A stretch of 60,767 nucleotides of DNA from Candidatus Bipolaricaulota bacterium (GCA_018335015.1 JAGXKX010000004.1:1-60767); one strand, 5' to 3'; shown: positions 28,917 through 54,553, numbered from the stretch's first letter. Made by a program: numbers and translations. The notes: generated by a model from the letters alone, not told the origin.

Positions 28917-29117
28917 CACAGTTCCTCCACCACCCCCGTACATCATTGTTTTGTCCTCCTGTGCCTCCTGCCTAATTACCTGGCAACTGATTTAACCTTA
29001 AAATTCTACCAGTAGACAAAATCCGGCAGCCAGGTAATAGGCAGGAGGCTTGAACTAAAAAATATAATGATTTCTTGTCTCCTTCACATTGCTTCCGACG
29101 GTAGTGAAAGAACTGAG
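28917..29117. mobile_element. MITE-like element, copy B (full length; core inverted relative to copies A and G)
   Basis: TIRs CACAGTTCCTCCACCA / TAGTGAAAGAACTGAG; AGAA on both sides; IR at 28963-28984/29029-29049; core 28985-29028. Confidence 0.8.
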
Positions 29118-29239
29118 AGAAGTAATCGAAAAGGTCCTCCAGAGAAAACTTGTACCCGGTAACTGAGACCAGATACCTGTTAAGTTAGTAGTTGACCGTT
29201 GTACTGAAAGTCCATGGAAGTTAACCTCATAAAGATACA

Positions 29240-29878
29240 ATGAAACGCGACAGGGTAATCTTCGACCTCGACGGAGTTCTTCTCGATTCGGAAACCAACC
29301 TGGACTGGCTGGACCGGGCCCTTACAAGAGCTCTGGTAGAACTGGATCTTCCACTAACCAGAGAAAACATGGAAAAACTCTACCCTGGCGGGCTCCAGGA
29401 TTTCGAAACCGCCGTGAAAGACTTACCTTTCTCTCCAGAAAAAATTTGGAAAGTCAGGGATAAACACTACCTGGCCGAAAAACTGGAGATGATCGACAGG
29501 GGGGAACTCCGACCATTTTCCGACGTAACCAGCCTGGAACGGCTCCAGGACGATTACTCGCTCGGCGTAATAAGCAACTCCCCCGAAGTGGCGGTCAATC
29601 GCTTCATTAAGGCTTACAATTTTGAAGACCTTTTCGAGTCCTGGGTTGGACGAAGCTCGGAATTAAATTCGCTAGAGGAAATCAAGCCCGACCCAGCACT
29701 ATTCCAAAAACTAAAGGGGGAAGTCGGGGACGGAAAATTCTGGTACGTCGGCGACAGAGAAGTAGATAAAATATTCGCCGAAAACACGGATATGGAGTTT
29801 CTCCACCTCACCAGAAATGGAGAAGGATTTGAAAGTCTCGACGAACTGGTTGATTACCTGCTCGAACTAGCAGAATAA
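29240..29878 (+). CDS. HAD-superfamily hydrolase
   Basis: IFDLDGVL, ISNS, KPDP, YVGD..D motifs. Confidence 0.9.
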   Translation: MKRDRVIFDLDGVLLDSETNLDWLDRALTRALVELDLPLTRENMEKLYPGGLQDFETAVKDLPFSPEKIWKVRDKHYLAEKLEMIDRGELRPFSDVTSLERLQDDYSLGVISNSPEVAVNRFIKAYNFEDLFESWVGRSSELNSLEEIKPDPALFQKLKGEVGDGKFWYVGDREVDKIFAENTDMEFLHLTRNGEGFESLDELVDYLLELAE

Positions 29879-29955
29879 CCTAGTTTTGTTAGCTGGGTGG
29901 GAAAACCCCCGGTCTTTCTTCCCCCCACGACGTTCAGCCGTAGGAGGGCGAGTCT

Positions 29956-30924
29956 TCAGTCCCAGAGTTCGTAGGTCTGCTCTCCGATCGGTTCGTCAAA
30001 AGTCTCGCCGTCTACCTTCAATCCTATCGCGTCCGAAGCCCGAGCTTCTCCGATAACGGCGGCCCTGATTCCGTTGTTACTGAGCAGTTCGAGCGCCTCC
30101 TGAACCTCGGCCGCGGGTACGCTCGCTATTAGCGCTCCCGAGCCGAATACCTTCAGCGGGTCTACTTCCGCGGCTTCACAGATTTTCTCGGTATCGGGAT
30201 TAACGACGATCTCCTCCCGCTCGATTTCGAGAGCCAGGCCGGAAGCCGAAGCCATCTCAAACAGACCGGCCAGCACACCTCCCTCAGTCGGGTCGTGCAT
30301 GGCAGTGGCGTAATCATTTAAAAGCAACCCTTCGGGAAGTACGCTTAGTTGAGTCAGCCGATCCGCTCCTTTATCCAGGTCTTCTTCGGCGACTTCGCCT
30401 TCGAGTTCCTCCCGGAAATCGGTTGCGAGAATGCCAGTTGCCTCTATTCCCGCTCCTTTCGTCAGAATCAATTTGTCTTCGGGTCTGACTCCTCCAGTAG
30501 GGATATATCTGTCAGCGAGACCGAAACAGGTAAGAGACAGGAAGGGCCTCTTGATACCGGAAATATATTCCGAATGCCCGCCTATAATAGCAATTCCAAG
30601 CTCCTGCGAGGAGTTGTCTATCTGTCTTGAGATCTTATCGAGATAGTCCTCATCGCCGTCCGGCAACAGGTAAGTAATCGTCATCCATCTCGGTTCGGCA
30701 CCCGAAGCCGCCAGGTCGTTGCTGGCAATATTGACGCCGAGCGTCCCGACTCTATCCCCTGCGTAAATAATCGGATCCGAATTAACAACCAGGACCCGAT
30801 CCCCCAGATCTATCGCCGCAGTGTCCTCTCCGTAGGCGGGCCCGACCACTACGGACTCGTCCACTGAGCCCAATCTATTAAATACGTACTGGTTAAGTCC
30901 ATCTGGGCCGACCTTACCTACCAT
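29956..30924 (-). CDS. AIR synthase-related (PurM/HypE-like) protein
   Basis: GEDTAA, SDPI, NDLAASGA, GGHSE, MHDPTEGG. Confidence 0.85.
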   Translation of the reverse strand: MVGKVGPDGLNQYVFNRLGSVDESVVVGPAYGEDTAAIDLGDRVLVVNSDPIIYAGDRVGTLGVNIASNDLAASGAEPRWMTITYLLPDGDEDYLDKISRQIDNSSQELGIAIIGGHSEYISGIKRPFLSLTCFGLADRYIPTGGVRPEDKLILTKGAGIEATGILATDFREELEGEVAEEDLDKGADRLTQLSVLPEGLLLNDYATAMHDPTEGGVLAGLFEMASASGLALEIEREEIVVNPDTEKICEAAEVDPLKVFGSGALIASVPAAEVQEALELLSNNGIRAAVIGEARASDAIGLKVDGETFDEPIGEQTYELWD

Positions 30925-30996
30925 CTCTCAATCACCCCGAACTGTCAGCTATGATAGCGGAAGGAAGGAAAATTTAAAAGAGCGAGGAAAAAACTT

Positions 30997-31096
30997 TGCC
31001 TCCTGTCCCTTACCTGGCTGCCGGGATTTAGTCTACTGGTAGGAGTTTAAGGTTAAATCAGTCCAGGTAAGGGACAGGAGGCATAGGAGGACAAAA
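30997..31096. repeat. MITE-like element, copy C (internal hairpin plus partial flank, no TIRs)
   Basis: 21-bp perfect IR at 30997-31017/31063-31083 around a reverse-oriented core, followed by TAGGAGGACAAAA flank. Confidence 0.8.
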
Positions 31097-31160
31097 CTCC
31101 CCAGCTGTTAACCATATAGCCTTAATAGCTCGTTTTCTCCCCGGGTTTCCAGACAACCAC

Positions 31161-32201
31161 CTAACTACTCATGTAGTTACGGGCATCCGCAATAATATCC
31201 CTGATGTCTATCTCTCCACCCGCAGTGGATATACATAACCCACAACCCGAGCACCCGTAGTCGCCGAATTCGTCGAAGGACCACCGGAATTTATCGTAGA
31301 ACATTTCTTTCATCCGGCTATCGGTCGGATCGTCCGAGTGGAGTTCGTGGTGAATATCCTTCAGGGTCGCGGAGTCCCAGACCTTGTCCTTGATAGCACT
31401 CTCCCCGTCTCCCTCCTGAATATTGTGTAAAGTAAGGGAGGTCGGACAGGCAAGAGTAAATGCCGTACAGTAACGGTTCTTCGCGGAGTACTTTTCCCAG
31501 AATGGAGCGTCGCGCGGAACTTCTCCGACCTCGGGGCTAACTTCAAAATAGGCGTTTTTGTCCTCGATCTTCTTCCGCATCTTTTCCCTGTGGGCTTCCC
31601 TCAGCTCTATCTGTTTCTCCGTAGCCTCGGTAAGAAGATGATCGTAACGATCTGCTATCTCGTGTCCTTTTTGGGAATCCTCCCCAACCTCGATCAACAT
31701 ATCTCCGTAATGGGGCAGGGTAGAAACGTTCAAATCGAACCCGGACTCTGGATAGGGATTGCCCCCGACCTTGTTACAGAAACAGGGATCGGCAATCTCC
31801 AGACAGTCGCAGGATATTATCGTCGTTTCCTCCCTTCGTTTCTTATAGAAAGGGTAACTTATTTCGCCCTGTTCGAACGCTCGGTCGAGTATTTCCAGGG
31901 CATTTATATCACACGACTTATAACCCAGGAGGGCTAAACTTTTCCCCTCTTCGCCAGGCTGGCCTTCGGGGAAAGTATGGAGGACGTTATTTGGGGGGAA
32001 GAAGAAGTCGTAACACAGGGCGTCGGTTCTCCGACAGTTCAATTGAAAATGGGTTTCTTGAGGGTCCCACTGAACGAACTCCCATCGGCTTCTCGGGCCC
32101 TCTCGTTGCTGACAAAATACCGGAAGAAAGATGTAGTTGTCCTCGGCCAGGTTGTTTACTAACTTTCTCAGATCCCACTCGGAAAGACTGTAAATTTCCA
32201 T
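31161..32201 (-). CDS. AsrA / sulfhydrogenase-beta (HydB)-like Fe-S protein with degenerate Cys motifs
   Basis: G..SCD..A...LD, CFC...G, C-terminal K.......GCSGCGLC....IDI; several Cys ligands missing. Confidence 0.7.
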   Translation of the reverse strand: MEIYSLSEWDLRKLVNNLAEDNYIFLPVFCQQREGPRSRWEFVQWDPQETHFQLNCRRTDALCYDFFFPPNNVLHTFPEGQPGEEGKSLALLGYKSCDINALEILDRAFEQGEISYPFYKKRREETTIISCDCLEIADPCFCNKVGGNPYPESGFDLNVSTLPHYGDMLIEVGEDSQKGHEIADRYDHLLTEATEKQIELREAHREKMRKKIEDKNAYFEVSPEVGEVPRDAPFWEKYSAKNRYCTAFTLACPTSLTLHNIQEGDGESAIKDKVWDSATLKDIHHELHSDDPTDSRMKEMFYDKFRWSFDEFGDYGCSGCGLCISTAGGEIDIRDIIADARNYMSS

Positions 32202-32287
32202 TTGTCCCCCCTATACGCGGTTCAAGGGAAAATATCCCCACGACCCGGACGAAAATAAAAGTTCAGAGAGACTGTCCAGTTACAATA

Positions 32288-32305
32288 TTGTGGACATGTT
32301 CACGT
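32288..32305. promoter_or_regulatory. Candidate Rex operator
   Basis: TTGTGGACATGTTCACGT vs consensus TTGTGAA-N4-TTCACAA; upstream of the Fe-S gene; rex is in the window. Confidence 0.35.
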
Positions 32306-32567
32306 TCTCAAAGTTATTATAGCATAGTTGAAACGATATGCCAAATATTCTCCATCGATTCCGGCTAAATGAACTGGATCATCGAGGTACGCTTCCGATC
32401 AGTTCGGAACGCCGGATATACCAGGTTTTATTAATCCCTTTTCCTAACGACTTGACAAAACTCTATTACCCGATAAGTTTTTAGGAGTTGCTTTACACCT
32501 ACGGGGGCGGAAATAGGTAAGGAGCAAGTTTTCCAAAAATATTTCATAAAGAGGTGAGATTTTTGAA

Positions 32568-33572
32568 ATGAAGAATCAAAAGGCAAAATGGGGTATAGTT
32601 GGCACCGCGAATATTGCAAAAAAAGCCCTTATCCCCGGTATAAGGGATTCAGATAGTTCCGAGCTTTACGCGGTAGGGTCCCGCGACGGGGCAAGAGCAA
32701 AAAGATTCGCGAAAGAATTCGAGATACCGGAAAGCTACGGGTCTTACGAAGGGCTTTTGGACGATCCTCGAGTCGAGTTCGTCTATATTCCACTGCCAAA
32801 CCACCTCCATCACGAGTGGACAATTAAATCGCTGAAAAGGGGGAAGCACGTTCTGTGTGAGAAGCCACTTGGTACCACCGCGGGAGAAGTCAGGGAAATG
32901 TTCGAAGCTGCAAAAGAGAACGACGTAAAACTGATGGAAGCGTTTATGTATCGATTCCACCCCCAGGTCCTTCGGGTCAAGGAATTAATTGACCGGGGAG
33001 AAATAGGCGAACCGAAATTCTTCCGAGGAGCTTTCTCTTTCCCGCTGGTTAACCAGGACCGGGAAGACGACATAAGGTGGAAGGAAGAGATGGGCGGAGG
33101 GAGTTTGTTGGACCTTGGCACGTATTCGATAAATACCGTACGATATCTCTTCGACGACGAGCCCCGGAAAGTTTTTGCCAGGTCTTCCTATCACCCGGAC
33201 CACACGGCAGACGCCGAAACCCAGGCGACCATGGAGTTTCCCGGTGACAGAACTGCCACGTTTGACAGCAGCTTCCTTCTCAGCGACCGGGCAAACTTCG
33301 AAGTCGTCAGCAGTTCGGGCGCTATTCGGGGATTTAACACCTACGGTCCAGGGCGATATAAACGTCTCAACGTCGAGATCGAAAGGGGCAACTCAAGGGA
33401 AATAGAAACGGTCAAGGGAGTAGACGAATATAGCCTGGAAGTAGACGAACTTTTAGATGCAGCTTCCAAAGATAGAAAACCCAAAATTACCAGGGAGGAT
33501 AGTATGAATCAAGCCAGAGTCCTGGACGCGGTGAAAGAATCGGCCGAAAACCAGAGCTGGGTGGAGGTATAA
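32568..33572 (+). CDS. Gfo/Idh/MocA-family sugar dehydrogenase
   Basis: WGIVGTANIA, PLPNHLH, KHVLCEKP, MEAFMYRFHP, GGGSLLDLG. Confidence 0.9.
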   Translation: MKNQKAKWGIVGTANIAKKALIPGIRDSDSSELYAVGSRDGARAKRFAKEFEIPESYGSYEGLLDDPRVEFVYIPLPNHLHHEWTIKSLKRGKHVLCEKPLGTTAGEVREMFEAAKENDVKLMEAFMYRFHPQVLRVKELIDRGEIGEPKFFRGAFSFPLVNQDREDDIRWKEEMGGGSLLDLGTYSINTVRYLFDDEPRKVFARSSYHPDHTADAETQATMEFPGDRTATFDSSFLLSDRANFEVVSSSGAIRGFNTYGPGRYKRLNVEIERGNSREIETVKGVDEYSLEVDELLDAASKDRKPKITREDSMNQARVLDAVKESAENQSWVEV

Positions 33573-33778
33573 GACTTGAAAATACCATCGGGAAGGTTTC
33601 ATAATCTAGATCAAATTCGGCTAGTTCCAGTTATGGTCCTTCACGGGTAGAGATGATTTAATTGGAAGAACTCCTCGAGAAAAAAACTTTCAACGGTTTG
33701 GTAAAAAAACGCAGGCGAAAAGACGACGGAAGAATAATTATTTATTATTCCCGGACGGAAAGCGGGGAGGGAGGTTAG

Positions 33779-34738
33779 ATGCCGGAACTCCGCTGGAACC
33801 CTATCCTTAAAAGATGGAACATAATATCCGACGCGAGGCAGGACCGGCCCGTCCTTCCAGAAGACAGTTGCCCTCTCTGCCCGGAGGTGCTGGAAGTACC
33901 CCGGGAGGATTACTACATAGTTTCGTTCGAAAACAGATTTCCCTCGCTGGAACGAGACCCCGAAACGCCGAACGTAGAAGGGGATTCATTCTACAAGGTG
34001 AGGAAAAACAGAGGAGTTTGCGAGGTCCTTCTCTATTCTTCCGATCACGACGCTTCCCCCGCCGACCTGAACCAGGAGAGGTTCGAGGACCTCATTAAGG
34101 TCTGGCGGGACAGGTTCGAGGAGCTATCCGGAGAAGATTTTATCGATTACGTCTACATCTTCGAAAACCGGGGTCGGGAGATAGGAGTAAGCCTGGACCA
34201 CCCTCACGGCCAAATTTACGCCTTCCCCTTTATCCCTCCCCTGGCCCGGAGATCGATCGAAAGCGCAAAGTCACATCATGAAAAATATGACGAATGTATT
34301 TTTTGCCGGGTTTTAGGAAAAGAGAGGGAGTTAGAGGAGAGGGTTATCTGGGAGGACGATTATTTCGCGGCTTTCGTCCCGTTTTACGCCCGGTTCCCCT
34401 ACGAAGTTCACCTCTACCCCAAACGGCACTTCCCGACGATTAAAGCGCTGGAGGACCGGGAACTTTCATCTCTGGCATCGGGCATTAAAACCGTGCTCAG
34501 TAAGTACGGGAACATCTTTCCGATAGACGATTTTCCTTATATAATGAGTTTCCACCAGGCTCCCGTAGACGACGGAGATTACTCCTATTATCACTTTCAC
34601 CTCGAATTTTACTCCCTTCAGCGAGGCGAAGACAAAATTAAGTACAGAGCGGGAGTCGAGACGGGAATGAACGCGTTTATATCCTCGCTTTCCCCGGAAA
34701 AGATGGCGAAAGACCTCAAAGAAACCCGCCCGAAATAG
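33779..34738 (+). CDS. galT: Galactose-1-phosphate uridylyltransferase
   Basis: CPLCP, FENRG..IG.SL.HPHGQ. Confidence 0.95.
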   Translation: MPELRWNPILKRWNIISDARQDRPVLPEDSCPLCPEVLEVPREDYYIVSFENRFPSLERDPETPNVEGDSFYKVRKNRGVCEVLLYSSDHDASPADLNQERFEDLIKVWRDRFEELSGEDFIDYVYIFENRGREIGVSLDHPHGQIYAFPFIPPLARRSIESAKSHHEKYDECIFCRVLGKERELEERVIWEDDYFAAFVPFYARFPYEVHLYPKRHFPTIKALEDRELSSLASGIKTVLSKYGNIFPIDDFPYIMSFHQAPVDDGDYSYYHFHLEFYSLQRGEDKIKYRAGVETGMNAFISSLSPEKMAKDLKETRPK

Positions 34739-34749
34739 CGGGATAATAA

Positions 34750-35913
34750 ATGAAAACCGATAGATTGAAAAAGGAGTTTACAGAATTTTTCGGTGCCGGT
34801 AGAGAACCCGAGATCTATCGTGCACCGGGCCGAGTTAACCTTATCGGCGAACATACCGATTACAACGACGGTCTCGTCCTCCCGATAGCTATAGATCTTT
34901 CGACGTACGGTCTATTCCGCCTCACGAACGAAGACAAAATACGGGTATACTCAGAAAACCTGGATAAATTTGAGGAGATCGAGCTCGCGAATCTTTCCCG
35001 GAGAAAAGGTAATTGGACGGACTACGTCAGGGGTGTCCTCTCGAGCCTGGAAAGTCGATCGAAAACTATCTCCGGGTTCGATCTCTACCTGAGCTCCGAA
35101 ATTCCCGTGGGAAGCGGGCTATCCAGTTCAGCTGCGCTCGAGGTAGTGACCGCCGTGGGTGCCATCAAGACGATGAACCTGGACGAAGTCGAAGATTTAG
35201 ATCTAATAAAACTCTGTCAGAAAGCGGAGAACGACTTCGTCGGGGCAAATACGGGGATTATGGACCAGTACGCATCTTACCTTGGCAGGGAGGGAGCGGG
35301 ACTCCTTATCAACACGGCCGAGCCTTCGCATAAATTTGTAGATCTCGGTCTGAAAGGTTACGAGCTTTTAGTGATCGATACCACTGTATCCCATACCCAC
35401 GATGACAACGAATACAACCGGAGGCGGAGGGATTGCGAAAGAGCGGTTAACGCGATAAACGAAAGTACCGCGGGGAAAACACTAAAGTCTTTGAGCGATA
35501 TACCCTCCGAGGAATTGGATGATATCTTACCCCAGCTTGAAGAAAGTCTAGCAAACCGGACCGAACACGTCGTCCGGGAAAACGAACGAGTAGAAAAAGC
35601 CGCCGGATTTTTTCAGCAGGGAAGAATAAAAGAGGTCGGAGAATTGTTCTTCGCCTCCCATGACAGTTTACGCGATCTCTACGAAGTTAGCTCCCCGGAG
35701 CTGGACTATCTAATAGAATTCGCCCGCGCCGAAGGTATTCCCGGAGCCAGAATGACCGGCGGAGGGTTTGGGGGATCGACCATACACCTGGTCCCCGAAA
35801 GTCAAATGGACGAATATCTGAAGAAAGCCTCCCGAGTATTCGAGGAGGAATTTGAAATAACTCCGGACGGATTCCCTGTTTCCCCGAGCGACGGAGCGAA
35901 ATTTCAAAATTAG
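34750..35913 (+). CDS. galK: Galactokinase
   Basis: PGRVNLIGEHTDYN, P.GSGLSSSAA, GIMDQ, GARMTGGGFGG. Confidence 0.96.
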   Translation: MKTDRLKKEFTEFFGAGREPEIYRAPGRVNLIGEHTDYNDGLVLPIAIDLSTYGLFRLTNEDKIRVYSENLDKFEEIELANLSRRKGNWTDYVRGVLSSLESRSKTISGFDLYLSSEIPVGSGLSSSAALEVVTAVGAIKTMNLDEVEDLDLIKLCQKAENDFVGANTGIMDQYASYLGREGAGLLINTAEPSHKFVDLGLKGYELLVIDTTVSHTHDDNEYNRRRRDCERAVNAINESTAGKTLKSLSDIPSEELDDILPQLEESLANRTEHVVRENERVEKAAGFFQQGRIKEVGELFFASHDSLRDLYEVSSPELDYLIEFARAEGIPGARMTGGGFGGSTIHLVPESQMDEYLKKASRVFEEEFEITPDGFPVSPSDGAKFQN

Positions 35914-36062
35914 CGAGGCATTTGCGCGAGAAAGGTTGTAATATTATTGTTTCTTGGTTAACCTCAATTAGGAAAACTTGAGTCAATTACCCCACTTTTA
36001 GAGAGTGGTTTGTAGAAATATTATTTTAAGGTTAGAAATTATGTTCTTTAAAATTTTGAGAC

Positions 36063-36170
36063 CCAGCACTCAATCGAGCCACGATATCAAGATTAAATTT
36101 GAATTGGCAAACAAACTAATTAATAACTACTCCACTTCGCACAGAGAACCGTTACTCGATTGAGTGCTGG
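36063..36170. repeat. 16-bp perfect inverted repeat around a 76-bp AT-rich spacer
   Basis: CCAGCACTCAATCGAG (36063-36078) / CTCGATTGAGTGCTGG (36155-36170). Confidence 0.7.
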
Positions 36171-36301
36171 ACCAAAAACAATCGATTCAACCCAAGTCAA
36201 AGAGCGGGCTCACTCTCGGCAGGTGGAGTTGAAAACTCTAATATGTTTTGGTAAATAAATCAACTATTGCGTTGACGCTGAGAAACAGCGGGTGATATTA
36301 G

Positions 36302-36529
36302 ATGATTACCGAAGAAGAAGTAGAAGAAGCACTAGATGAAGTCAGGCCATCTATCCAGGCAGACGGTGGAGACGTAGTTCTGGACGAAATCACCGAGGAT
36401 AACGTCGTAAAGGTACAGCTCGTGGGAGCCTGTGTCGGTTGCCCGATGTCGACAATGACCTTGAAACAGGGCGTCGAAAAGGTTCTGGAGTCTAAGATAC
36501 CAGAAATAGAAGAAGTTCAGGCAGTATAA
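36302..36529 (+). CDS. NifU/NfuA-type Fe-S carrier domain protein
   Basis: VRP.IQADGGDV, GACVGCP.S..TLK. Confidence 0.93.
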   Translation: MITEEEVEEALDEVRPSIQADGGDVVLDEITEDNVVKVQLVGACVGCPMSTMTLKQGVEKVLESKIPEIEEVQAV

Positions 36530-36598
36530 CTGTCATCTTGAGTGAACCCCGTACAGTTAGTATCATAAACGAACCAAAAGAATTAGGGGTGGGACAAG

Positions 36599-37027
36599 AT
36601 GGCAGCAAGTCTTAATCAGGTTATTCTTATCGGAAATTTAACCGAGGATCCCGAACTTCAATACACACAATCAGGAGTCGCAAGAACAACTTTTACCATA
36701 GCAATAAACAGACAGTACAGAGACGCCAACGACGAATTGCAGGAAGAAACGACCTTCGTCCCCATCACCACGTGGAGAAATCAGGCTGAAAATTGCGCCA
36801 CCTACCTCAGTAAAGGCAGACCCGTTGCAGTAACCGGAAGACTCAGGATTTCCAACTACGAGGACGACGAGGGTAATAACAGAAAGTGGACGAGCGTAGT
36901 GGCCCAAAACGTCCAGTTCCTCGGATCCGGCCAGGGCGAAAGACAGGAGGAAAAAGCCGAACAACCTCCTCCGGAAAGACCGGAACCCAGTTCTTCCGAC
37001 GAAGACGACGAGGAAATACCATTTTAG
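36599..37027 (+). CDS. ssb: Single-stranded DNA-binding protein
   Basis: LNQVILIGNL..DPE, YLSKG..V.V.GRL, acidic tail ending DEEIPF. Confidence 0.96.
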   Translation: MAASLNQVILIGNLTEDPELQYTQSGVARTTFTIAINRQYRDANDELQEETTFVPITTWRNQAENCATYLSKGRPVAVTGRLRISNYEDDEGNNRKWTSVVAQNVQFLGSGQGERQEEKAEQPPPERPEPSSSDEDDEEIPF

Positions 37028-37094: not shown

Positions 37095-37289
37095 CTCAGT
37101 TATTCACCAACGGCGACCTTGCTGTTTGGTCCGAAGAGGAGTTCCCCCCTTACCTGGCAACTGATTTAACCTTTTCAACTCAGTAGTAGACAAAATCCGG
37201 CAGCCAGGTAAGGGGGGAACTCCTAGAAAAAAGAAGTCAAAATATTCGTGAATTAAGCTTCGCTTTCAGGCAATGGAGAAAGATGTGAG
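37095..37289. mobile_element. MITE-like element, copy D (subfamily 2 flanks)
   Basis: Degenerate TIRs CTCAGTTATTCACCA / TGGAGAAAGATGTGAG; 22-bp perfect IR at 37137-37158/37203-37224; flanks match the reverse complement of copy E; no clear TSD. Confidence 0.75.
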
Positions 37290-37356
37290 TTTAATTGAGG
37301 CTAGATGAAAAGAACTGAGGATTAGAGGTTGAGGTCAGAAATAACTGAGTCAGGGA

Positions 37357-42641: not shown

Positions 42642-42844
42642 CTCAGATCTTCCACCATCGCATGAAAGCGAAACTTAATGGTGAGTATTGATTTCTTTTT
42701 TTCACTACTAGCTCTCTACCTCTTACCTGGCTGCCGGATTTCGTCTCCTGGTGAGTTTTAAAGGTTAAATCAGTTGCCAGCTAAGAGGTAGAGAGCAGTC
42801 ATCCGAACCAGGTAGTTAAATCCACCGTTGGTGAAAGATCTGAG
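42642..42844. mobile_element. MITE-like element, copy E (full length, subfamily 2)
   Basis: TIRs CTCAGATCTTCCACCA / TGGTGAAAGATCTGAG; flanks TGCAA/TACAA (4/5 match); IR at 42711-42731/42776-42796. Confidence 0.8.
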
Positions 42845-46962: not shown

Positions 46963-46980
46963 AAAGGAGGGTAAGTAAAA

Positions 46981-47895
46981 ATGGTTAAATTACTAATTTC
47001 GGATCCGATAGCGGACGAGGGGGTAGAAAAACTCGAAAGGGCGGGGTTCGAGCCCGATCACAAGTACGACCTATCCGCCGAGGAGCTCAAAGATGAGATA
47101 GGGCAATACGAGGGGATCGTGGTTCGATCCGGGACCAAACTACGGGCTTCCATCCTGGACGCAGCTGAGGGGCTGAAGATCATCGTCAGAGCGGGCGTGG
47201 GACTGGACAACATCGACCTCGATCGAGCGGACGAGCTCGGTATCGAGGTCCAAAACACTCCGGCAGCCAGCTCAAATTCAGTAGCGGAGCTGGCTCTGGG
47301 TCACATGTTCTCCCTTGCCCGTGAGATACCGCGCGGAACGGCGTCCCTGAAGAAGCAAAAGTGGATAAAGAGCGACCTGTACGGCACGGAACTTGCCGGA
47401 AAAACCCTGGGTATAATAGGGGTCGGGAGGATCGGCAGTCTGGTCGCGGAGAAAGGGATGGCGCTTGGCATGGAAGCAATAGCTTACGACAAATTCGTCG
47501 AGGAGTCCCCGGTAGAAGGTGTAGAGATGGTTAACCTGGATCGATTGCTAAGCGATTCCGACTACCTAACTCTACACATACCGTTTATCGAATCGGAAGG
47601 GGCGACGATCGCCGAACCGGAGTTGAAGAAAATGAAGGATTCTGCCTACCTGATAAACTGCGCTCGTGGAGGAGTGGTGGACGAAAAAGCGCTAAAACAG
47701 GCGTTGAGCAACGACTGGATCGCCGGGGCCGCTCTCGACGTATTCACGGAAGAGCCCCCCGAGGACGAGGAACTGCTGTCATTTGAGAACCTCTCACTGA
47801 CGCCCCACCTGGGTGCTTCCACAGCGGAGGCCCAGACAAGGGTCGGAACGCAGGCTGCAGACGAACTAATTGATTTTTTCGACAAGGAGGAATAA
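46981..47895 (+). CDS. serA: D-3-phosphoglycerate dehydrogenase (short form, no ACT domain)
   Basis: VRS.TK, RAGVGLDNID, GVGRIG, INCARGG, TPHLGAST.EAQ. Confidence 0.85.
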   Translation: MVKLLISDPIADEGVEKLERAGFEPDHKYDLSAEELKDEIGQYEGIVVRSGTKLRASILDAAEGLKIIVRAGVGLDNIDLDRADELGIEVQNTPAASSNSVAELALGHMFSLAREIPRGTASLKKQKWIKSDLYGTELAGKTLGIIGVGRIGSLVAEKGMALGMEAIAYDKFVEESPVEGVEMVNLDRLLSDSDYLTLHIPFIESEGATIAEPELKKMKDSAYLINCARGGVVDEKALKQALSNDWIAGAALDVFTEEPPEDEELLSFENLSLTPHLGASTAEAQTRVGTQAADELIDFFDKEE

Positions 47896-47898
47896 CAG

Positions 47899-49200
47899 AT
47901 GGCTGAAGTCTATCCTTTTCAGGGATACCGATACAATCCGGAAAAAGTGGGCGACGTAAACCGCGTAGTTAGCCCACCGTACGATAAGATCGACGAAGAA
48001 GAGCGAGAAGACCTGGCCAACGAGAGTCTCTACAACATAGTCAGAATAATTCTAAGCAGGGCGAAAGACGAGGGAGAAGACAGGTACGAGCGGGCCGCAA
48101 AGAACCTTCAGGACTGGGTTGACGAAGGCGTCCTGCAGAGAGACGAGCAACCGGCCTTCTACGCCTACTATCAGAAATACGAAGCCGAGGGCGAAAAGAA
48201 AGTTCGAAAAGGCTTTATTGGACTAGGAAAAATTGAAGAAGGAGAAGGGGTCAAAGCACACGAAGAAACGATGTCCGGACCCAAAGCCGACAGGCTCCGG
48301 CTGCTCAGGGCGACGGAAGCCAACTTTGGCCAGATATTCATGCTCTATTCCGACCCCGAAAACGAGGTAACGGATGTAATGAACCGGGCAAAGGGAGAAA
48401 AGTCCGTCCTGGAAGTCAAGGATAAATACAGGAACACACACCAGATCTGGAAACTAACCGACGAGGAAATAAAGGAGCAAATCAAGGAAGAGATGAAGGA
48501 TAAAAGCCTTTACATAGCTGACGGCCACCACAGGTACGAAACCGCCCTGAACTACAGAAACGAGTGCAGGGAAAAGGGCTGGGAATCGCCCGAAAGTGGC
48601 GGTTTCGATACCAGAATGATGACTTTCGTAAACGTTGACGATCCCGGCCTGAGCATACTGGCGACCCACAGACTGCTCCACGACCTCAAGAACTTCAGAC
48701 CTCACGGCGTGCTTGACAAAGCAAGGAAACACTTCTCCATCACCCGATACGACGAAAGAGAGGACCTGCTGGAGAAGCTGGACGCGGACAGAGGAGAAAA
48801 ACACACCTTCGGTTACAGGGCAAAAGACGACAAAGCCTACTGGAGCCTTACCCTTCGCGACGAATCCATTATGGCCGAACTGCTTCCGGACAAGTCGGAA
48901 TCCTGGCGGGGTCTTGACGTCGCTATTCTCCACAAGCTCGTCCTCGAAAACTATCTGGGAATTGACGAAGAAGCACTGGAAGAAAAACGAAACCTGGAAT
49001 ACGTCAGGGGTCGAGAGAAAGCTCTAGACATGCTCAAAGAGGGAAGATATCAGGGCGCCTTCATCATGAATCCGACGAGAATAGACCAGGTTAAAGAAGT
49101 TGCTGACAGGGGAGAAAAGATGCCTCAGAAATCGACCGACTTCTATCCCAAATTGCTGACGGGTCCCGTGCTTCACAAATTACAAATCGACAAAGGTTAG
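47899..49200 (+). CDS. DUF1015-family protein
   Basis: SPPYD, HE.T, IADGHHRYE, MPQKST.FYPK. Confidence 0.88.
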   Translation: MAEVYPFQGYRYNPEKVGDVNRVVSPPYDKIDEEEREDLANESLYNIVRIILSRAKDEGEDRYERAAKNLQDWVDEGVLQRDEQPAFYAYYQKYEAEGEKKVRKGFIGLGKIEEGEGVKAHEETMSGPKADRLRLLRATEANFGQIFMLYSDPENEVTDVMNRAKGEKSVLEVKDKYRNTHQIWKLTDEEIKEQIKEEMKDKSLYIADGHHRYETALNYRNECREKGWESPESGGFDTRMMTFVNVDDPGLSILATHRLLHDLKNFRPHGVLDKARKHFSITRYDEREDLLEKLDADRGEKHTFGYRAKDDKAYWSLTLRDESIMAELLPDKSESWRGLDVAILHKLVLENYLGIDEEALEEKRNLEYVRGREKALDMLKEGRYQGAFIMNPTRIDQVKEVADRGEKMPQKSTDFYPKLLTGPVLHKLQIDKG

Positions 49201-49203
49201 GTT

Positions 49204-51816
49204 ATGGAGTGGACGACGGACGAACTTAGAGAAGCGTACCTGCGATATTTCGAGGAAAGAGATCACCGGAGAAAGGAGGGGTCAGGGCTGATTCCCGACG
49301 ATCCTTCCATGCTTTTTACTTCGGCAGGTATGGTGCAGTTCAAAGATATCTTCTGGGGCAAAAGGGAGCCGGAGGAAACCCGGGTTACCACATGTCAGAA
49401 GTGCTTCCGGGCTAACGATATCGAGCGTGTCGGCGAAACCTGGTACCACCATACCTTCTTCGAAATGCTCGGGAACTTCTCCTTTGGTGATTACTTCAAG
49501 AGAGGAGCTATCGAACTTGCCTGGGAATTCGTCACCGCGGTCCTCTCGTTTGAGAAGGAAAACCTCTGGGTCTCCGTTTACGAGACGGACGACGAAGCCT
49601 ACGCCGTCTGGCGCGACGAAATAGGCGTCCCGGAGCGGAAGATAGCCAGGCTGGGCAAGGACGAAAACTGGTGGGGGCCGGTGGGCGATTCCGGACCCTG
49701 CGGGCCCGACTCCGAGATATTTTACGACGCGGGCGAGGAATACAGCTGTGGCCCGGACTGCGAGGGGGTAGCCTGTGACTGTAACAGGTTCAACGAACTA
49801 TGGAACCTGGTCTTCACCGGCTACCAGATGAATAGACAGGGGGAAGTAGAAGAGCTGGAGCGACAGAATATTGATACTGGAATGGGATTAGAAAGGGTAG
49901 CCGCGGTTCTCCAGGGAGTGGATTCCGATTTCGAAATAGACGTGTTCCGTCCGTTAATCGAGGAATTAAAGGAGATAATTGGTCTCAACGACTACTCACC
50001 CGAAAAAACCAGCTACGTCCATAGAATCGGCGACCACTTACGAGGCGCGGCCTTTCTGATATCCGAGGGCGTGATTCCCGCCAACGAAGGCAGGGGCTAC
50101 GTGCTGCGCCGGATTATTCGGCGTGCCGTTCAGGCAGGGGATAGGCTCGGAATGAAGGAAACGTTTTTGACTTCGGCCCTGCCCCCGATTTACGATACAA
50201 TGGGAGGAACTTACCCTGAACTCGTCGATCGCAAGGACCTGATAGAGAACGTAATTGACCACGAAGAAGGAAGCTACAGAAATACCCTCAACGAAGGAGA
50301 ACAGCTATTTTACCGGCTGGCTTCCGACTTAAGAGAAGAAGAAAAGAAGGTAATTCCCGGCGAGGACGCCTTTCGGCTATACGATACGCACGGTCTACCG
50401 CTATCGTTCCTGAAAGAACTGGCGAACGAGGAGAACCTGGAAGTCGACGAAGAAGGGTTCGAGCAGGAAATGGCCAAGCAGAGGTCGAGATCGAGAAGCG
50501 AGCAGGAAGATGCTGAAGGGCTGCACGAGGTCGCCGACGTCCCGGAGACTGAATTCGTTGGCTACGAAAAGGACTGCCTAAAAGCGCAGGTCCTTGCTCT
50601 TATAGGCGACGGAGAAAAAACCGACCGGCTTTCGGAAGGGGAGGAAGGTGTGGCGGTACTGGACAGAACCCCGTTCTACGCCGAAGCTGGAGGGCAGGTG
50701 AGTGACGTGGGCACGCTGGAGGCCGAGGACTCCAGAGCTGCCGTCCACAAAGTAGTGGAAAGAAAAGGTATTTACTACCATCGGCTGGAAATGGAAACGG
50801 GCAGACTAAAGGTTGATGATAATATTGAAGCAAGGATAGAAACGAGGAAAAGGAGGAGTACGGAGCGAAACCACACGGGCACTCACCTGCTCCACCAGGC
50901 TCTCCAGCAAGTACTGGGGCCTCACGTAGTCCAGTCCGGTTCGAAAGTGGCACCCGAGGAGTTGAGATTCGACTTCAACCACTTCGAAATCCCTACCGAA
51001 GAAGAGCAGCGGGAAATCGAAAACCTGGTAAACGATGTTGTGCTCTCCGATAGACCGGTGTCCAAGAACTGGGTGGATAGCGTCGAGAAGGCTAAAGAAC
51101 TCGGGGCGGCCGCCCACTTCGAAGAGGAATACCGGGGAAAGGAGAAACTAAGGACGATAACGGTAGAGGGTTTCAGCAAGGAGCTCTGCGGAGGAACCCA
51201 CGTAAGCCGAACGGGGGAGATAGGTGGCTTTGCGATTCAGTCGATCGAAACTATCGCCTCGGGCATTCGACGGATAAGAGCCGTTACCGGTGAGAATTTC
51301 CTCTCCGAATTCAGGAGCCAGCGCGACCGGCTCGAAAGGCTGGCCGAACTGGCCGGTTCCGGAAAGTCCGGGATCGTAAAGCGGTTCGAATCGATATTAT
51401 CCCAGCAGGAAACACTGAGGAACGAGTTGGAGAGAAAAACCGAGAGGTTACTGTCCACGGTAAAAGATCAGGTTCTCGAAGAAGCGGAGACTCTCGACGG
51501 AGTCAGGCTGGTTTCCGCTCGGCCCGAGGTCGACGGGTCGGACCTAAAACGGTTAGCCGACCACGTCGAAAAGGAAGTCGACGGAGTAGTTATTTTAGGC
51601 ACGACCGAGGAGGACAGCGCCTCGATAGTCTGCAAGGTAACGAAATCCCTCACTGACGTGCTGGACGCGGGAGAAATCGTCAGGGAAGCTTCGGCAGTTC
51701 TTGGCGGAGGAGGCGGCGGCTCGGCCAACTTTGCCCAGGGAGGAGGCCCGAAAAAGGACCAGATCGACGAAGCGCTGCGGTCCGGGGCTAACATCGTAAG
51801 ATCGACGATCGGGTAG
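49204..51816 (+). CDS. alaS: Alanine--tRNA ligase
   Basis: SAGMVQFK, HHTFFEMLGNFSFGDYFK, DTGMGLER, editing HxxxH/ELCGGTH, GGGG..AQGG. Confidence 0.97.
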   Translation: MEWTTDELREAYLRYFEERDHRRKEGSGLIPDDPSMLFTSAGMVQFKDIFWGKREPEETRVTTCQKCFRANDIERVGETWYHHTFFEMLGNFSFGDYFKRGAIELAWEFVTAVLSFEKENLWVSVYETDDEAYAVWRDEIGVPERKIARLGKDENWWGPVGDSGPCGPDSEIFYDAGEEYSCGPDCEGVACDCNRFNELWNLVFTGYQMNRQGEVEELERQNIDTGMGLERVAAVLQGVDSDFEIDVFRPLIEELKEIIGLNDYSPEKTSYVHRIGDHLRGAAFLISEGVIPANEGRGYVLRRIIRRAVQAGDRLGMKETFLTSALPPIYDTMGGTYPELVDRKDLIENVIDHEEGSYRNTLNEGEQLFYRLASDLREEEKKVIPGEDAFRLYDTHGLPLSFLKELANEENLEVDEEGFEQEMAKQRSRSRSEQEDAEGLHEVADVPETEFVGYEKDCLKAQVLALIGDGEKTDRLSEGEEGVAVLDRTPFYAEAGGQVSDVGTLEAEDSRAAVHKVVERKGIYYHRLEMETGRLKVDDNIEARIETRKRRSTERNHTGTHLLHQALQQVLGPHVVQSGSKVAPEELRFDFNHFEIPTEEEQREIENLVNDVVLSDRPVSKNWVDSVEKAKELGAAAHFEEEYRGKEKLRTITVEGFSKELCGGTHVSRTGEIGGFAIQSIETIASGIRRIRAVTGENFLSEFRSQRDRLERLAELAGSGKSGIVKRFESILSQQETLRNELERKTERLLSTVKDQVLEEAETLDGVRLVSARPEVDGSDLKRLADHVEKEVDGVVILGTTEEDSASIVCKVTKSLTDVLDAGEIVREASAVLGGGGGGSANFAQGGGPKKDQIDEALRSGANIVRSTIG

Positions 51817-51829
51817 TCCGGCTTCTCAA

Positions 51830-51950
51830 GCTCTCCCCCACTTACCTGACAACTGATTTAACCTTTAAAACTTACCAGTAGACGAAATCCGGCAGTCAGG
51901 TAAGTGGGGGAGAGCAGTCAACTATGTACGACAGTGGGAAAAGAACTGAG
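51830..51950. mobile_element. MITE-like element, copy F (one TIR only)
   Basis: 21-bp perfect IR at 51830-51850/51895-51915 with a compensatory CTGAC/GTCAG change; right TIR GGGAAAAGAACTGAG. Confidence 0.78.
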
Positions 51951-51956
51951 TTTCGC

Positions 51957-53138
51957 TTACCGTTCGGCCGATATCGGCATACAGACGTAAAGGAAGTCTC
52001 CTTCACCCTTTGCCGGTTCCAGTAATCCGGCGGTCTCCGAATCACGTAACCAGAGTACCACTTCGTCGGTGCTCATCCGGCGCAATGCGTCTATCAAAAA
52101 TTCTGCCTTAAAGGAAATTTCTACATCCCCTTGACTGGGCTCAATCAGCTCGACAACCTCTTCCAGTTCGCCCTTTTCGGGGGACGAAGAATACATCGTC
52201 AGACCGTCCGACCCCTCTTCAGCCCTGAGCTCGACCGCTCCCGATTCCTCTGAGGCAGTGATTTCGGCCCGGGCGAGCGTTTCCAGAGTCCTGTTCCTAT
52301 CGAGCTTGAGCGGTAGTTCGTTGTCCTCCGGTATAACCGCTTCGTATTCCGGGAACTGTTCCATTATGAGCTTGTCGGAAAAAACGACGTCGTCGGAGAC
52401 GAAGAACACTTCCGACTTCGAGGCGTAGACAGAAACTTCTTCGGACTCCGTTCCGGATAGGATCCTATCCAGCTCAGTCAGTGCGCCGGACTCTATAAGA
52501 AGATCCGTCCGCTCCTCTACCTCCGAAAGGGGTATCGTTTTGACCGACATCCTGTAGCCGTTGGTGGCGATCATCTTTAGCTGGTCCTCTTCAAATATCG
52601 TCTTTACCCCGGTCAACGACAGTCTGGTCGTCTCTTTGGCCTTCAGCGCGGCAAACGTGGTCTGTTTTATCGCGTTCTTTAATTCGTCGACGTTAATTTT
52701 TGCTACGGGTTCCTCCGGCAATTCTTCGACACTCGGATAATCCTCCGTTGATAATTGAAACAAGTCGAAATTAATAGGGCCCGAGGAGAGTTCAACTTTC
52801 TGGTTTTCTTCCGGATCGGACTTCAACCTCACTTCACCATCCTCCGGAATGCGCTGCATTATTTTTGCCAATACGTCCCCCTTGAGAACAACCGTAGAGG
52901 AACCTTCAAGGTTTGATATCGGGACCGTGCACCTCGTGGTCATCTCCAGGTCAGTCGAAGTAAGTTTGAGTTCCTCGTCCCTTATTTCCAGCTTTACCCC
53001 GGAGAGTATAGGCATATCCCGTCCGGTCCCAATACTCCTCTTCACTATATCCATGCCGTAAATTAAATCCTTCGTGGCACACTTGAAGTCGACTTCGGCT
53101 GGACTGTCCGTCCCCACGTCAAGTTCCTGATCAGTCAC
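51957..53138 (-). CDS. dnaN: DNA polymerase III beta clamp
   Basis: PILSGV, TDLE, ATNGYR, FPEY..VIP, F...FLIDAL, YVCMP. Confidence 0.93.
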   Translation of the reverse strand: MTDQELDVGTDSPAEVDFKCATKDLIYGMDIVKRSIGTGRDMPILSGVKLEIRDEELKLTSTDLEMTTRCTVPISNLEGSSTVVLKGDVLAKIMQRIPEDGEVRLKSDPEENQKVELSSGPINFDLFQLSTEDYPSVEELPEEPVAKINVDELKNAIKQTTFAALKAKETTRLSLTGVKTIFEEDQLKMIATNGYRMSVKTIPLSEVEERTDLLIESGALTELDRILSGTESEEVSVYASKSEVFFVSDDVVFSDKLIMEQFPEYEAVIPEDNELPLKLDRNRTLETLARAEITASEESGAVELRAEEGSDGLTMYSSSPEKGELEEVVELIEPSQGDVEISFKAEFLIDALRRMSTDEVVLWLRDSETAGLLEPAKGEGDFLYVCMPISAER

Positions 53139-53229
53139 TATTTTACCTCCTAATTGCGTTCATGTCTTTTAGTTTTCGCCTTAACATAATACCAACTTTC
53201 TCGGCTCTAATCACACAAACCAGACCGCC

Positions 53230-53877
53230 TCATAGAAGCTCGGTCTCGAGTTCGGAAATCACTCTCCGGGAGATCTCGTCTTTTGGCAGGGTTCCGTCTA
53301 TAAGTACCGCCTCATCCATCGAGCGGATTTCCTCCAGGTAACCTTCTCTAACCCTCCTATAGAACTCCCGGGCCTCTTTTTCGATCCGGTCTGGCTTCTG
53401 CCCGGAACCCCGCCTTTCTCGTTCTTCCAGATCTATGTCCAGAAAAATGGTCGCGTTGGGTTCCACGCCGTTCAACGCTATATCGTTTAACCTCTTAACC
53501 ACGTCAATCGGTATACCACGGCCGTGACCCTGGTAGGCAACTGACGAAGCGGCAAACCGGTCCGAAATAATCACGTTTCCCTTTTCCAGTTCGGGTATTA
53601 TCTTCTCTCTCACGAGCTGAGCCCGCGAGACTTCGTAGAGGAAGAGCTCGCTCAAGGGCCTGATATCCATTCCGTGATCCTCCAGCAGGAGGTCGCGTAC
53701 TTTCCGGCCCAGAGACGTTCCACCAGGCTCTTCCACTTTAAGGACCTCGTGACCTTTTTCTTTCAGATAGTCAGCTAACAGCCCCGCCTGGGTCGTCGTT
53801 CCCGAACCGTCTAGCCCCTCGAAGACTATAAGACTACCGGCAAAGTTATTGTCCAAGGAACCTCGAACCTCCGGCAA
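53230..53877 (-). CDS. tmk: Thymidylate kinase
   Basis: FEGLDGSG.TTQ, EPGG, SDRF..SS.AYQG.GRG. Confidence 0.93.
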   Translation of the reverse strand: MPEVRGSLDNNFAGSLIVFEGLDGSGTTTQAGLLADYLKEKGHEVLKVEEPGGTSLGRKVRDLLLEDHGMDIRPLSELFLYEVSRAQLVREKIIPELEKGNVIISDRFAASSVAYQGHGRGIPIDVVKRLNDIALNGVEPNATIFLDIDLEERERRGSGQKPDRIEKEAREFYRRVREGYLEEIRSMDEAVLIDGTLPKDEISRRVISELETELL

Positions 53878-54301
53878 GCATAAATATCACTAGACCGGCT
53901 CCGGTCACGATTGCAACGTCGGCAAGGTTAAATATGGGGGCCCTCCAGACTTGAATAAAATCGACCACGGCCCCGGTCATAAGCCTGTCCACCAGGTTAC
54001 CCAATGATCCACCGAGCAAAAATGCAAGTCCGAGTTTCGTTATCGACTGTCGCAGTCCCGAAAAGAAAAGAAGATAAACCAGCAGACCCACCGCGATTAC
54101 CGTTATCAGGAGAAATAGGTAACCTTTTCTCGGAAAAAGTCCAAACGCCCCGCCCGAGTTTTTGACGTAATGGAGGGAAAAGAATCCATTTCGAAAAAAT
54201 ATCGGATGTCCTCCCCTGTAGCCGACCCCCGCGAGAAACTTGCTCAACCTATCCAGTACGAAGACGAAAAGCGCTATCAGAAAGTACTGCAAATTTCCCA
54301 C
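53846..54301 (-). CDS. lspA: Lipoprotein signal peptidase
   Basis: N.G.AFG, GG.LGNL.DR, V.DF, FNLAD. Confidence 0.93.
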   Translation of the reverse strand: MGNLQYFLIALFVFVLDRLSKFLAGVGYRGGHPIFFRNGFFSLHYVKNSGGAFGLFPRKGYLFLLITVIAVGLLVYLLFFSGLRQSITKLGLAFLLGGSLGNLVDRLMTGAVVDFIQVWRAPIFNLADVAIVTGAGLVIFMLAGGSRFLGQ

Positions 54302-54352
54302 TTTACCTCCACTCCGGGCTTAAAACTCCTCTGTCTTATCCAGTAGCTACTT

Positions 54353-54553
54353 CTCAATTCTTTCACCATCCCCGTACATCATTGCTTTGTCCTCCTATGC
54401 CTCCTGCCTCTTACTTGGCTGCCGGATTTTGCCTACTGGTAGAATTTTAAGGTTAAATCAGTTGCCAGTTAAGAGGCAGGAGGTTTGAACTAAAAAATAT
54501 GGTGATTCCTCCTGACCTTCACCTTGCTTCCGAATAGTGGTGAAAGAACTGAG
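54353..54553. mobile_element. MITE-like element, copy G (full length)
   Basis: TIRs CTCAATTCTTTCACCA / TGGTGAAAGAACTGAG; perfect 5-bp TSD TACTT (54348-54352 / 54554-54558); IR at 54400-54419/54464-54483. Confidence 0.85.

Follow-up and report, generated by a model that had tools for sequence, protein, structure and literature searches.

A 60,767-nucleotide stretch of DNA from a Candidatus Bipolaricaulota bacterium (GCA_018335015.1 JAGXKX010000004.1:1-60767; here termed 'the window', meaning that whole stretch) carries seven copies, A to G, of a miniature inverted-repeat transposable element (MITE), the central hairpin of which contains a loop that is found in two opposite orientations. Comparison with related genomes indicates that this loop has been inverted in place after insertion, and on more than one occasion: at six of 17 orthologous insertions it is reverse-complemented between arms that have remained collinear.

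The repeat is an asymmetric MITE of approximately 201 bp. A hairpin with a 21-bp stem and a 44-nt loop separates two arms of unequal length; it lies 53 nt from one of the 15-bp terminal inverted repeats (TIRs) and 75-76 nt from the other. At least two subfamilies of arms can be aligned, type I (copies B and G) and type II (copy E), and there are others. The window corresponds to contig C64 of a metagenome-assembled genome (MAG), denoted G000, of 1.96 Mb in 152 contigs (48% G+C, 86.7% estimated completeness); in what follows, C-numbers denote contigs of G000, while G012, G008 and G002 are genomes of relatives and L-numbers are loci taken from other genomes or records.

Inversion of the loop at orthologous insertions

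The surroundings of elements in the relatives were placed in G000 by means of their flanks, which produced 35 distinct candidate pairs. A pair was accepted as orthologous if the best collinear identity of its arms was at least 0.6 and lay at least 0.10 above the best inverted identity. Nineteen of the 35 passed, of which one was a duplicate and another (L030/C146:13971) was dropped because its arms come from different subfamilies, leaving 17; the 16 pairs that failed the arm criterion (nine with the same loop orientation, seven with opposite orientations) were not used. Among the 17 orthologous pairs, 11 have the loop in the same orientation and six, found against two relatives, have it flipped with collinear arms: D/L019, C51:13626/L028, C57:1942/L035, C41:4098/L037, C5:9970/L058 and C5:4510/L058. 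For the first five of these the alignments display collinear flanks, TIRs and arms around a reverse-complemented loop; the flip of C5:4510/L058 was called from arm and hairpin identities only. Of the copies in the window, D has an orthologue in G012 with a flipped loop, and F has one in the same genome with the loop in the same orientation.

In the pair C5:9970/L058, the flanks are approximately 95% identical and the flipped loop retains a rare variant (..AAAACATAGTAGTAGAC..) that is present in few of the listed copies, which argues that the same loop was inverted, rather than being swapped for that of a typical paralogue. On the strength of such alignments, the in-place flips are the decisive result for inversion after insertion. 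Together with the arm phylogeny described below, they bear out the proposal, made in an earlier note on this DNA, that the core has been inverted repeatedly between its inverted repeat (IR) arms.

Two further pairs (L049/C112:37786 and L031/C125:14308) have arms that match better in the inverted than in the collinear direction and were left out of the count; this would reflect either a reversal of the entire element from TIR to TIR or separate insertions into one spacer. An additional case was seen in a comparison of C146:13481-14260 with L030 (contig C73 of G012), where a single spacer of G000 harbors two MITEs. The type II copy is absent in G012. At the other site, each species has an element at the same target (CTTAA / CTCAA), but the arms belong to different subfamilies and the loops are opposite. 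This corresponds either to a re-used insertion hotspot or to the replacement of a whole element.

It is scarcely credible that these flips are artefacts created by a de Bruijn assembler that crossed the loop the wrong way between identical palindromic stems. Assemblers do have difficulty here, as many copies are found at the ends of contigs and the Logan contigs are interrupted at the elements; however, the 21-bp stem is shorter than the usual final k-mer, so that by this reasoning the spanning k-mers fix the orientation. Both isomers are moreover found in independent assemblies of several relatives, the orientation of copy F is reproduced in contigs of three runs, and the flipped orthologues also carry ordinary substitutions.

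Loop orientation among paralogous copies

Within the window itself, the loop of copy B (28985-29028) matches that of copy G (54420-54463) on the opposite strand with one mismatch in 44 positions, where shuffled sequences lead to an expectation of 0.00, and it has no further match in the window at three or fewer mismatches. The flanks of the same two copies form collinear direct repeats, of 55 nt at 89% identity (D8) and 70 nt at 84% identity (D7). Copies E and F have a common right flank (..GAGAGCAGTCA..) and opposite loops. Both relationships had been described in the earlier note (the former as a match of 43 out of 44 positions to the reverse complement) and were reproduced here; its division of the copies into A, F and G as one isomer and B, C, D and E as the other was obtained again from an independent classification by arm length and arm similarity.

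For the genome-wide family, copies were oriented by their loop and assigned to an isomer according to the side on which the short arm lies. Type I comprises 43 copies of isomer 1 and 12 of isomer 2, and type II comprises 21 and 23, respectively, with 50 of 151 copies being unclassifiable by arm similarity; classification of the 60 complete copies by arm length gave a split of 40:20. On an arms-only maximum-likelihood tree of the 60 complete copies there are at least 14 orientation changes, as compared to an average of 17.0 for shuffled labels (26-32 of 500 label shuffles need as few changes as observed), and branches with at least 95% support force at least five of them. Because of these changes, loop orientation marks no clade and is nearly random on the arm phylogeny; a single ancient inversion is not borne out.

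Flips are also found among the youngest copies. The clade to which B belongs has 98% support and nine near-identical members, of which three are flipped; one of these three (on C83) has the same derived CACAG end as the unflipped members and the other two have CTCA, which points to at least two separate flip events. In every case it is the complete loop that is inverted: the ends and the centre of the loop are collinear in 122 of 126 classifiable copies, three being ambiguous and the one apparent exception being a mis-anchored truncated copy, and no copy was found in which only the centre had been inverted between the short inner repeat GATTT/AAATC.

An alternative, which we regard as improbable, is that each insertion fixes the orientation, transposition proceeding by way of a hairpin or single-stranded intermediate that can be resolved to either isomer. 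In its favour, very young type I copies with different target-site duplications (TSDs) differ in orientation, and the flip rate estimated from young paralogues is somewhat above that from orthologues. Such a process fails, however, for flipped orthologues in which arms, duplications and flanks are collinear, and the only HUH/Y1 gene of G000 (on C118) is not flanked by the MITE hairpin. TIRs combined with 5-bp duplications are, in addition, suggestive of a cut-and-paste mechanism of the DDE type, in which the interior of the element is not copied, and this too counts against a flip during transposition. Propagation through a hairpin in the manner of parvoviruses, one of three causes put forward in the earlier note, leaves flips at fixed chromosomal loci unexplained.

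Structure and conservation of the element

A profile built from the seven hairpins of the window produced 175 nhmmer hits in G000 at E<=1e-3, of which 151 score at least 40 bits, corresponding to a density of approximately one copy per 11-13 kb. The true copy number exceeds this count, given the many copies at contig ends. Only one of the 151 lies inside an open reading frame (ORF), according to crude ORF calls, and the element has spread to at least 150 intergenic sites of G000.

The TIRs read CTCAGTTCTTTCACC at the start of the element and, as its reverse complement, GGTGAAAGAACTGAG at the end, and both are present in 63 of the 151 copies when up to three mismatches are allowed. Directly outside of them, many copies have 5-bp direct repeats of no fixed sequence, such as AAGTA (copy G), TTATA, ATGAT, ACGTG, CTTAA and TGTAA; these TSDs were read from the copies themselves and are given as examples rather than as a tally over all 63, those of older copies being degraded. 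An attempt to define the insertion boundaries at locus B through an alignment with four relatives was abandoned, the spacer being too variable. With its TIRs, its TSDs, its small, non-coding and multicopy nature and its polymorphism between filled and empty sites, the repeat displays features characteristic of a MITE.

The stem of the central hairpin is made up of nine nearly invariant pairs (TTACCTGGC) and 12 outer pairs that covary and stay complementary. Across 130 copies, Watson-Crick pairing in the outer stem amounts to 0.72-0.92, versus 0.38-0.83 for shuffled partners, and drops sharply to background at the 13th outer position. Relative to shuffled sequence, the folding z-scores are -6.1 to -9.0 for the hairpins and -4.75 for the whole element. 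In the 60 complete copies, the frequency of the consensus base reaches 0.91 for the TIRs and 0.89 for the hairpin, as compared to 0.68 for the remainder of the arms. No Rfam family reached its gathering score in the window, the best matches to copy B being generic hairpins resembling miRNA precursors (30.8 bits against a gathering score of 55), and copy B had no match in the plasmid collection.

The manner in which the hairpin is combined with the arms bears upon a further explanation, namely that the 72-86-nt hairpin is a separate mobile element, inserted either way into a fixed site of a host MITE. The hairpin does sit between arms of several unalignable subfamilies and is better conserved than they are. 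We nevertheless give this idea very little credence. Only five of 146 arm matches are without an adjacent hairpin, all of them contig ends or truncations, and no intact MITE without a hairpin was found among them. The stem positions adjoining the arms covary with arm subfamily, which indicates that the stem belongs to the arm lineage; there is no direct duplication around the hairpin; and the flipped orthologues would require excision and re-insertion at exactly the same base.

The conservation of the hairpin among paralogues, which equals that of the TIRs, suggests that it probably serves the spread of the element. At orthologous loci the hairpin diverges about as fast as the arms, and the constraint upon it therefore seems to act when copies are made, rather than at resident loci. 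Our guess is an orientation-independent cis-role in mobilisation, for example as a site for a DNA-bending protein; a search of the loop for IHF-type or promoter-type motifs, conducted by eye only, turned up none that was convincing.

Mechanism and rate of inversion

From these comparisons we infer, with moderate confidence, a slow, recurrent and neutral inversion of the spacer by way of the IR that encloses it, through either template switching or recombination between the stem arms. After insertion, the loop of single copies would occasionally be turned into its reverse complement, with no change to stem, arms or flanks. During replication, the nascent strand would switch template within one stem arm, the loop would then be copied from the opposite strand, and a switch back would follow in the other stem arm; intramolecular recombination between the two stem arms would yield the same product, and the same process would keep those arms complementary. 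This would likely represent a known mutational process acting upon a new, unusually large and favourable multicopy substrate. Template switching has been proposed to explain compensatory changes and loop inversions in the hairpins of RNA genes (PMC8794818), quasipalindromes are hotspots of template switching in E. coli (PMC7202029), and small inversions of 4-50 bp associated with hairpins are pervasive in plastomes (PMC12371153).

Several hallmarks of spacer inversion are observed. In the alignments of flipped orthologues, the inverted unit is exactly the whole 44-nt spacer, with unchanged arms; the arm tree and the orthologues together reveal flips that are recurrent, homoplasious and reversible; and the 12 covarying stem positions, together with a compensated 3-bp difference, display the homogenisation of the two stem arms, for which selection for pairing would look alike. 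Of the three causes listed in the earlier note, switching of template at the replication fork provides the best fit. The element has every hallmark of it that can be checked in sequence: the spacer is inverted as a whole, the arms do not change, flips recur, and variation in the stem arms is compensated, with pairing that ends sharply.

Under a symmetric two-state model, the flip rate per hairpin would be very roughly 2-10 times the per-site substitution rate, an estimate based upon the six of 17 pairs that are flipped at approximately 75-90% flanking identity, and upon the flipped fraction of very young paralogues (about 1 in 7 to 1 in 3). At such a rate, the hairpin would be a mutational hotspot, yet orders of magnitude slower than phase variation, and the young type I copies would still be skewed (43:12) while the older type II copies have reached parity (21:23).

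A number of points weigh against this reading. All of the evidence for the mechanism is comparative sequence. Three of nine very young copies are flipped, which hints at a rate toward the high end for an untargeted error. The published inversions are also mostly shorter: the spacer inversions ascribed to template switching in yeast are changes of 2-5 bp (PMC8604942), those in rRNA loops are mostly of 4 nt and reach 7-8 nt (PMC8794818), and among the published inversions considered only the plastid cases approach 50 bp (PMC12371153). The other contrary observations are signs of sequence exchange. Orthologues with 94-97% identity elsewhere can disagree at a cluster of three loop nucleotides (..GACGAAAT.. 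versus ..GAGGTAAT..), which would imply a templated change or conversion. One copy (C104:4447-4515) is chimeric, its long arm being of type II and its short arm of type I. The site shared by C146 and L030 has arms of different subfamilies in two species. Finally, in C5:9970/L058 both stem arms differ by 3 bp in a compensated fashion (GCA/TGC versus GGT/ACC) alongside the flip, and a single replacement would explain the two as well as a template switch.

Those signs fit with ectopic gene conversion, in which the hairpin of one copy is overwritten by that of another, an explanation that we consider rather unlikely. The loop would be inverted if the palindromic 21-bp stem allowed donor and recipient to pair in antiparallel fashion, such that a conversion tract from stem to stem installed the opposite loop; this route, although doubtful in our judgement, is a serious rival that is inseparable from intramolecular inversion on these data. 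The versions of the 3-nt cluster occur at 92:19 among the 151 copies of G000, as compared to 3:10 among 22 loci attributed to G012, a comparison in which the grouping was guessed and many copies are unclassified. The greater conservation of the hairpin (0.89) than of the arms (0.68) among paralogues is also what concerted evolution would give. Against conversion, antiparallel pairing offers only 21 bp of homology per side and parallel pairing the whole element, so that only a minor share of conversions should yield flips, yet they are found in six of 17 orthologues; and the flipped loop of C5:9970/L058 retains its rare locus-specific variant. Flipped and unflipped pairs are alike in how the orthologue ranks among the 151 paralogues, a comparison that carries no information, since paralogues close to the consensus outrank true orthologues in both.

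Two details of these exchanges may be recorded separately. The two versions of the loop, distinguished by the 3-nt cluster, read ..GTAGACGAAATCC.. and ..GTAGAGGTAATCC.., as exemplified by C79:2135-2207 and L052:3479-3551. In the chimeric copy at C104:4447, the outer stem no longer pairs, and the copy looks like the product of recombination between two subfamilies within the hairpin.

It is also conceivable, though improbable, that flipping is driven by structure or assisted by an enzyme, for example the transposase or a host structure-specific nuclease, acting upon a cruciform or single-stranded hairpin that serves as an orientation-independent cis-element, and that it proceeds much faster than ordinary replication error. 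Were this the case, every population would be a mixture of flip and flop forms at each of more than 150 loci, and the family would be a counterpart on the chromosome to parvoviral flip/flop that might also give rise to heritable variation in regulation.

Gene context and the possibility of a switch

The earlier note had also raised the possibility that a site-specific recombinase inverts the core, and that the copies act as distributed switches for a binding site, promoter or terminator. Some properties of the family are in keeping with a programmed inversion, whether by such a recombinase or by some other enzyme dedicated to it: conservation of the loop and stem matches that of the TIRs, every subfamily retains both orientations, and young copies already differ in orientation. 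The remaining evidence makes it very improbable. No match to PF00239 (resolvase/invertase) was found in the 86.7%-complete G000, whereas the control matched 12 of 14 reference genomes (tyrosine recombinases, of which the Xer type is near-universal, were not searched), and no Rfam family matches the element. To our knowledge, an invertible segment of 44 bp is shorter than known invertases can synapse. Partial flips are absent, as described above, which together with the PF00239 result leaves the recombinase without support.

A role as switches fares no better. Relative to tandem genes, the loop is co-directional in 23 cases and anti-directional in 31, and the arms in 10 and 10, so that there is no bias. 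Eleven of the 17 orthologues have kept their orientation across species whose flanking DNA is approximately 75-90% identical, which is far too slow for phase variation; flips are rare even on an evolutionary scale (six of 17). Four sequencing runs were examined as Logan contigs, with X1-X3 labelled as salt lake metagenome and X4 as sediment, and copy F has one orientation in the contigs of three samples (X1-X3). At copy G, a single joint between opposite strands (54414 to 54463) was seen in X1, at a depth of 21.5 versus approximately 70. This candidate for heterogeneity at G was attributed to a paralogue, as it departs at a stem variant private to G (CTTGGC, where the paralogues have CCTGGC).

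With regard to neighbouring genes in general, 38 of 120 scorable copies lie between convergent, 28 between divergent and 54 between tandem genes, against a background of 169, 169 and 864. Elements are thus over-represented between convergent and divergent pairs relative to tandem ones, as judged by crude longest-ORF gene calls.

Mobility, distribution and candidate transposases

Empty sites document the past mobility of the element. Syntenic contigs of G012 and G008, two relatives from the same genus, have no element at the sites of copies A, B and C. At site D, G000 and G012 both carry the element and G002 and G008 lack it, and the site at C146:13588 is empty in G012. Elsewhere in the genus, the element was found in five of 14 genomes; beyond it, a single copy is present in one of four genomes searched from the rest of the family, and none was found in the 22 searched from the rest of the class. 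An exact 20-mer spanning stem and loop occurs in 37 stretches of a species-representative collection, nearly all of them in records titled Candidatus Bipolaricaulota, Bipolaricaulia or Acetothermia. A match in a Psychrobacter record (L042) was set aside: it amounts to 17 bits for the 20-mer alone, and about one chance match is expected at that collection size. A metagenome scan for relatives at the level of strains gave one stretch only.

Two occurrences outside the genus are of interest in their own right. The single copy in a genome from another genus of the family (L004/L065) has flanks that are 90-93% identical to C87 of G000, closer than those of relatives from the same genus (approximately 75-90%), for which reason its contig may be mis-binned or recently transferred. 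A record titled Candidatus Hydrogenedentota (L075), a MAG of another phylum, contains a genuine, though diverged, copy (36 bits), the flanks of which have no match in G000.

A search of G000, which is 86.7% complete, for an autonomous partner bounded by these TIRs found none: pairs of TIRs more than 260 bp apart correspond to neighbouring MITEs, and solo TIRs are fragments. A candidate at C84/C85 was rejected, being an arm fragment that adjoins housekeeping genes. Searches of the same incomplete genome with the profiles PF01609 and PF00665 gave no matches. In G012, a non-coding element of 896 bp (L080, at C58:7851-8746) has the same perfect 15-bp TIRs and a TSD (ATTTA), while lacking the central hairpin and any ORF of more than 112 amino acids; in place of the hairpin it holds a copy of a GC-rich repeat. 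Its combination of TIRs and TSD with no hairpin indicates that TIRs alone can suffice for transposition, the hairpin not being strictly required.

The only Y1_Tnp (HUH/Y1) gene of G000, at C118:369-641, is flanked by a different, GC-rich hairpin. This second and unrelated repeat family (..CGGCCGGGCACGGGGACCCGGCCTGCT..) has several copies around the gene, which is similar to those of IS200 and RAYT, at C118:1-1300, and the combination looks like a REP/RAYT system. Its GC-rich motifs were also seen in L014 (contig C35 of G008, approximately 10250-11000) and inside L080, and they fill intergenic spacers in the relatives.

Copies and genes in the window

Five of the seven copies are complete. Copy A (20779-20981) is a type I element with short-to-long arms on the minus strand; it is of isomer 2, has the TSD TGTAA, and its loop at approximately 20870-20914 reads AACTGATTT.. 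on the plus strand. Copy B (28917-29117, plus strand) has type I arms and is of isomer 1, with the short arm at 28917-28971, the hairpin at 28963-29049, the loop (28985-29028) on the plus strand and the long arm reaching 29117. Copy D (37095-37289, plus strand) is diverged, with arms resembling type II, and belongs to isomer 1, its loop (37159-37202) being on the plus strand. Copy E (42642-42844, minus strand) is a type II element of isomer 1, with the short arm on the right and the loop (42732-42775) on the minus strand. Copy G (54353-54553, plus strand) is of type I and isomer 2, with the TSD AAGTA, the short arm on the left, the hairpin at approximately 54398-54484 and the loop (54420-54463) on the minus strand.

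Copies C and F are incomplete. Copy C (approximately 30997-31100, minus strand) is truncated to the hairpin and about 17 nt of a type I short arm, without TIRs; its loop is on the minus strand, which assigns it to isomer 1. Copy F (approximately 51829-51950, minus strand) retains the hairpin and the right short arm with its TIR, the long arm being missing, and is of isomer 2 with the loop (51851-51894) on the plus strand; it adjoins the end of the alaS ORF at 51816. Just to the right of copy D, at 37290-37350, are two more TIR-like ends (..ATGAAAAGAACTGAG and ..TCAGAAATAACTGAG), which may be solo ends of older insertions; the block that contains D and these ends is missing altogether where G002 and G008 have an empty site.

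Each of the seven copies lies in an intergenic region, and their neighbours are ordinary bacterial genes: ileS, alaS, purA, dnaN and a gene for a GGDEF protein.

Significance

Because transposition has multiplied one hairpin more than 150 times, independent flips of the same sequence can be counted. The family thus represents a natural replicated experiment, in which one hairpin at more than 150 sites, and in several species, has undergone independent inversions in place. It permits estimates of the frequency with which a long spacer is inverted at short IRs in a bacterium, as well as tests of whether homogenisation of the arms accompanies inversion and whether the rate depends upon strand or context, questions for which the evidence to date has come mostly from organelles or from far shorter spacers.

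The findings are also of practical relevance. Loop orientation is an unreliable subfamily marker for repeats of this type, the divergence of MITEs is inflated in alignments unless flips are recognised, and the elements break short-read assemblies of these genomes. A hairpin as conserved as the TIRs would also point to an unrecognised cis-requirement of a transposase in a poorly known phylum.

Comparison with known systems

The Correia elements of Neisseria are short, non-coding and multicopy, are bounded by TIRs, generate TSDs, reside in intergenic DNA and are divided into subtypes by differences at their ends; it has been proposed that they contain, at the centre, a site for a DNA-bending protein of the host. 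The MITE described here resembles them in those traits, and is unrelated to them in sequence. REPINs, in turn, are abundant intergenic hairpins of bacteria that have neither TIRs nor TSDs and are mobilised by RAYT (Y1/HUH) proteins. The present element does not belong to such a REP/REPIN-RAYT system, as it has TIRs and TSDs and the Y1 gene is flanked by a different repeat. The flip/flop forms of parvoviruses, which arise by hairpin transfer at the ends of a linear genome in each round of replication, have in common with it two reverse-complement isomers between palindromic arms; here, however, the hairpin is internal to a chromosome and the flips are rare. The earlier note knew of no MITE family with a centre that flips, and our literature searches, of an incomplete library, likewise found none.

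The closest parallels are to mutational processes at hairpins. In plastids (Kelchner & Wendel 1996, as cited in PMC12371153), loops of up to approximately 50 bp between short IRs are reverse-complemented in a recurrent and homoplasious manner, in non-coding DNA and with no dedicated enzyme; those inversions affect single-copy organelle loci, whereas here one hairpin has been multiplied more than 150 times in a bacterial chromosome. Template-switch mutations at IRs and quasipalindromes (PMC8604942, PMC8794818, PMC7202029) share with the present case the homogenisation of arms through compensated changes and the inversion of the spacer, both of which are reversible and favoured by longer arms. 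In the published cases considered here the spacers are of 2-8 nt, as opposed to 44 nt between 21-bp arms in the family described here, where template switching would be the probable route to the same outcome.

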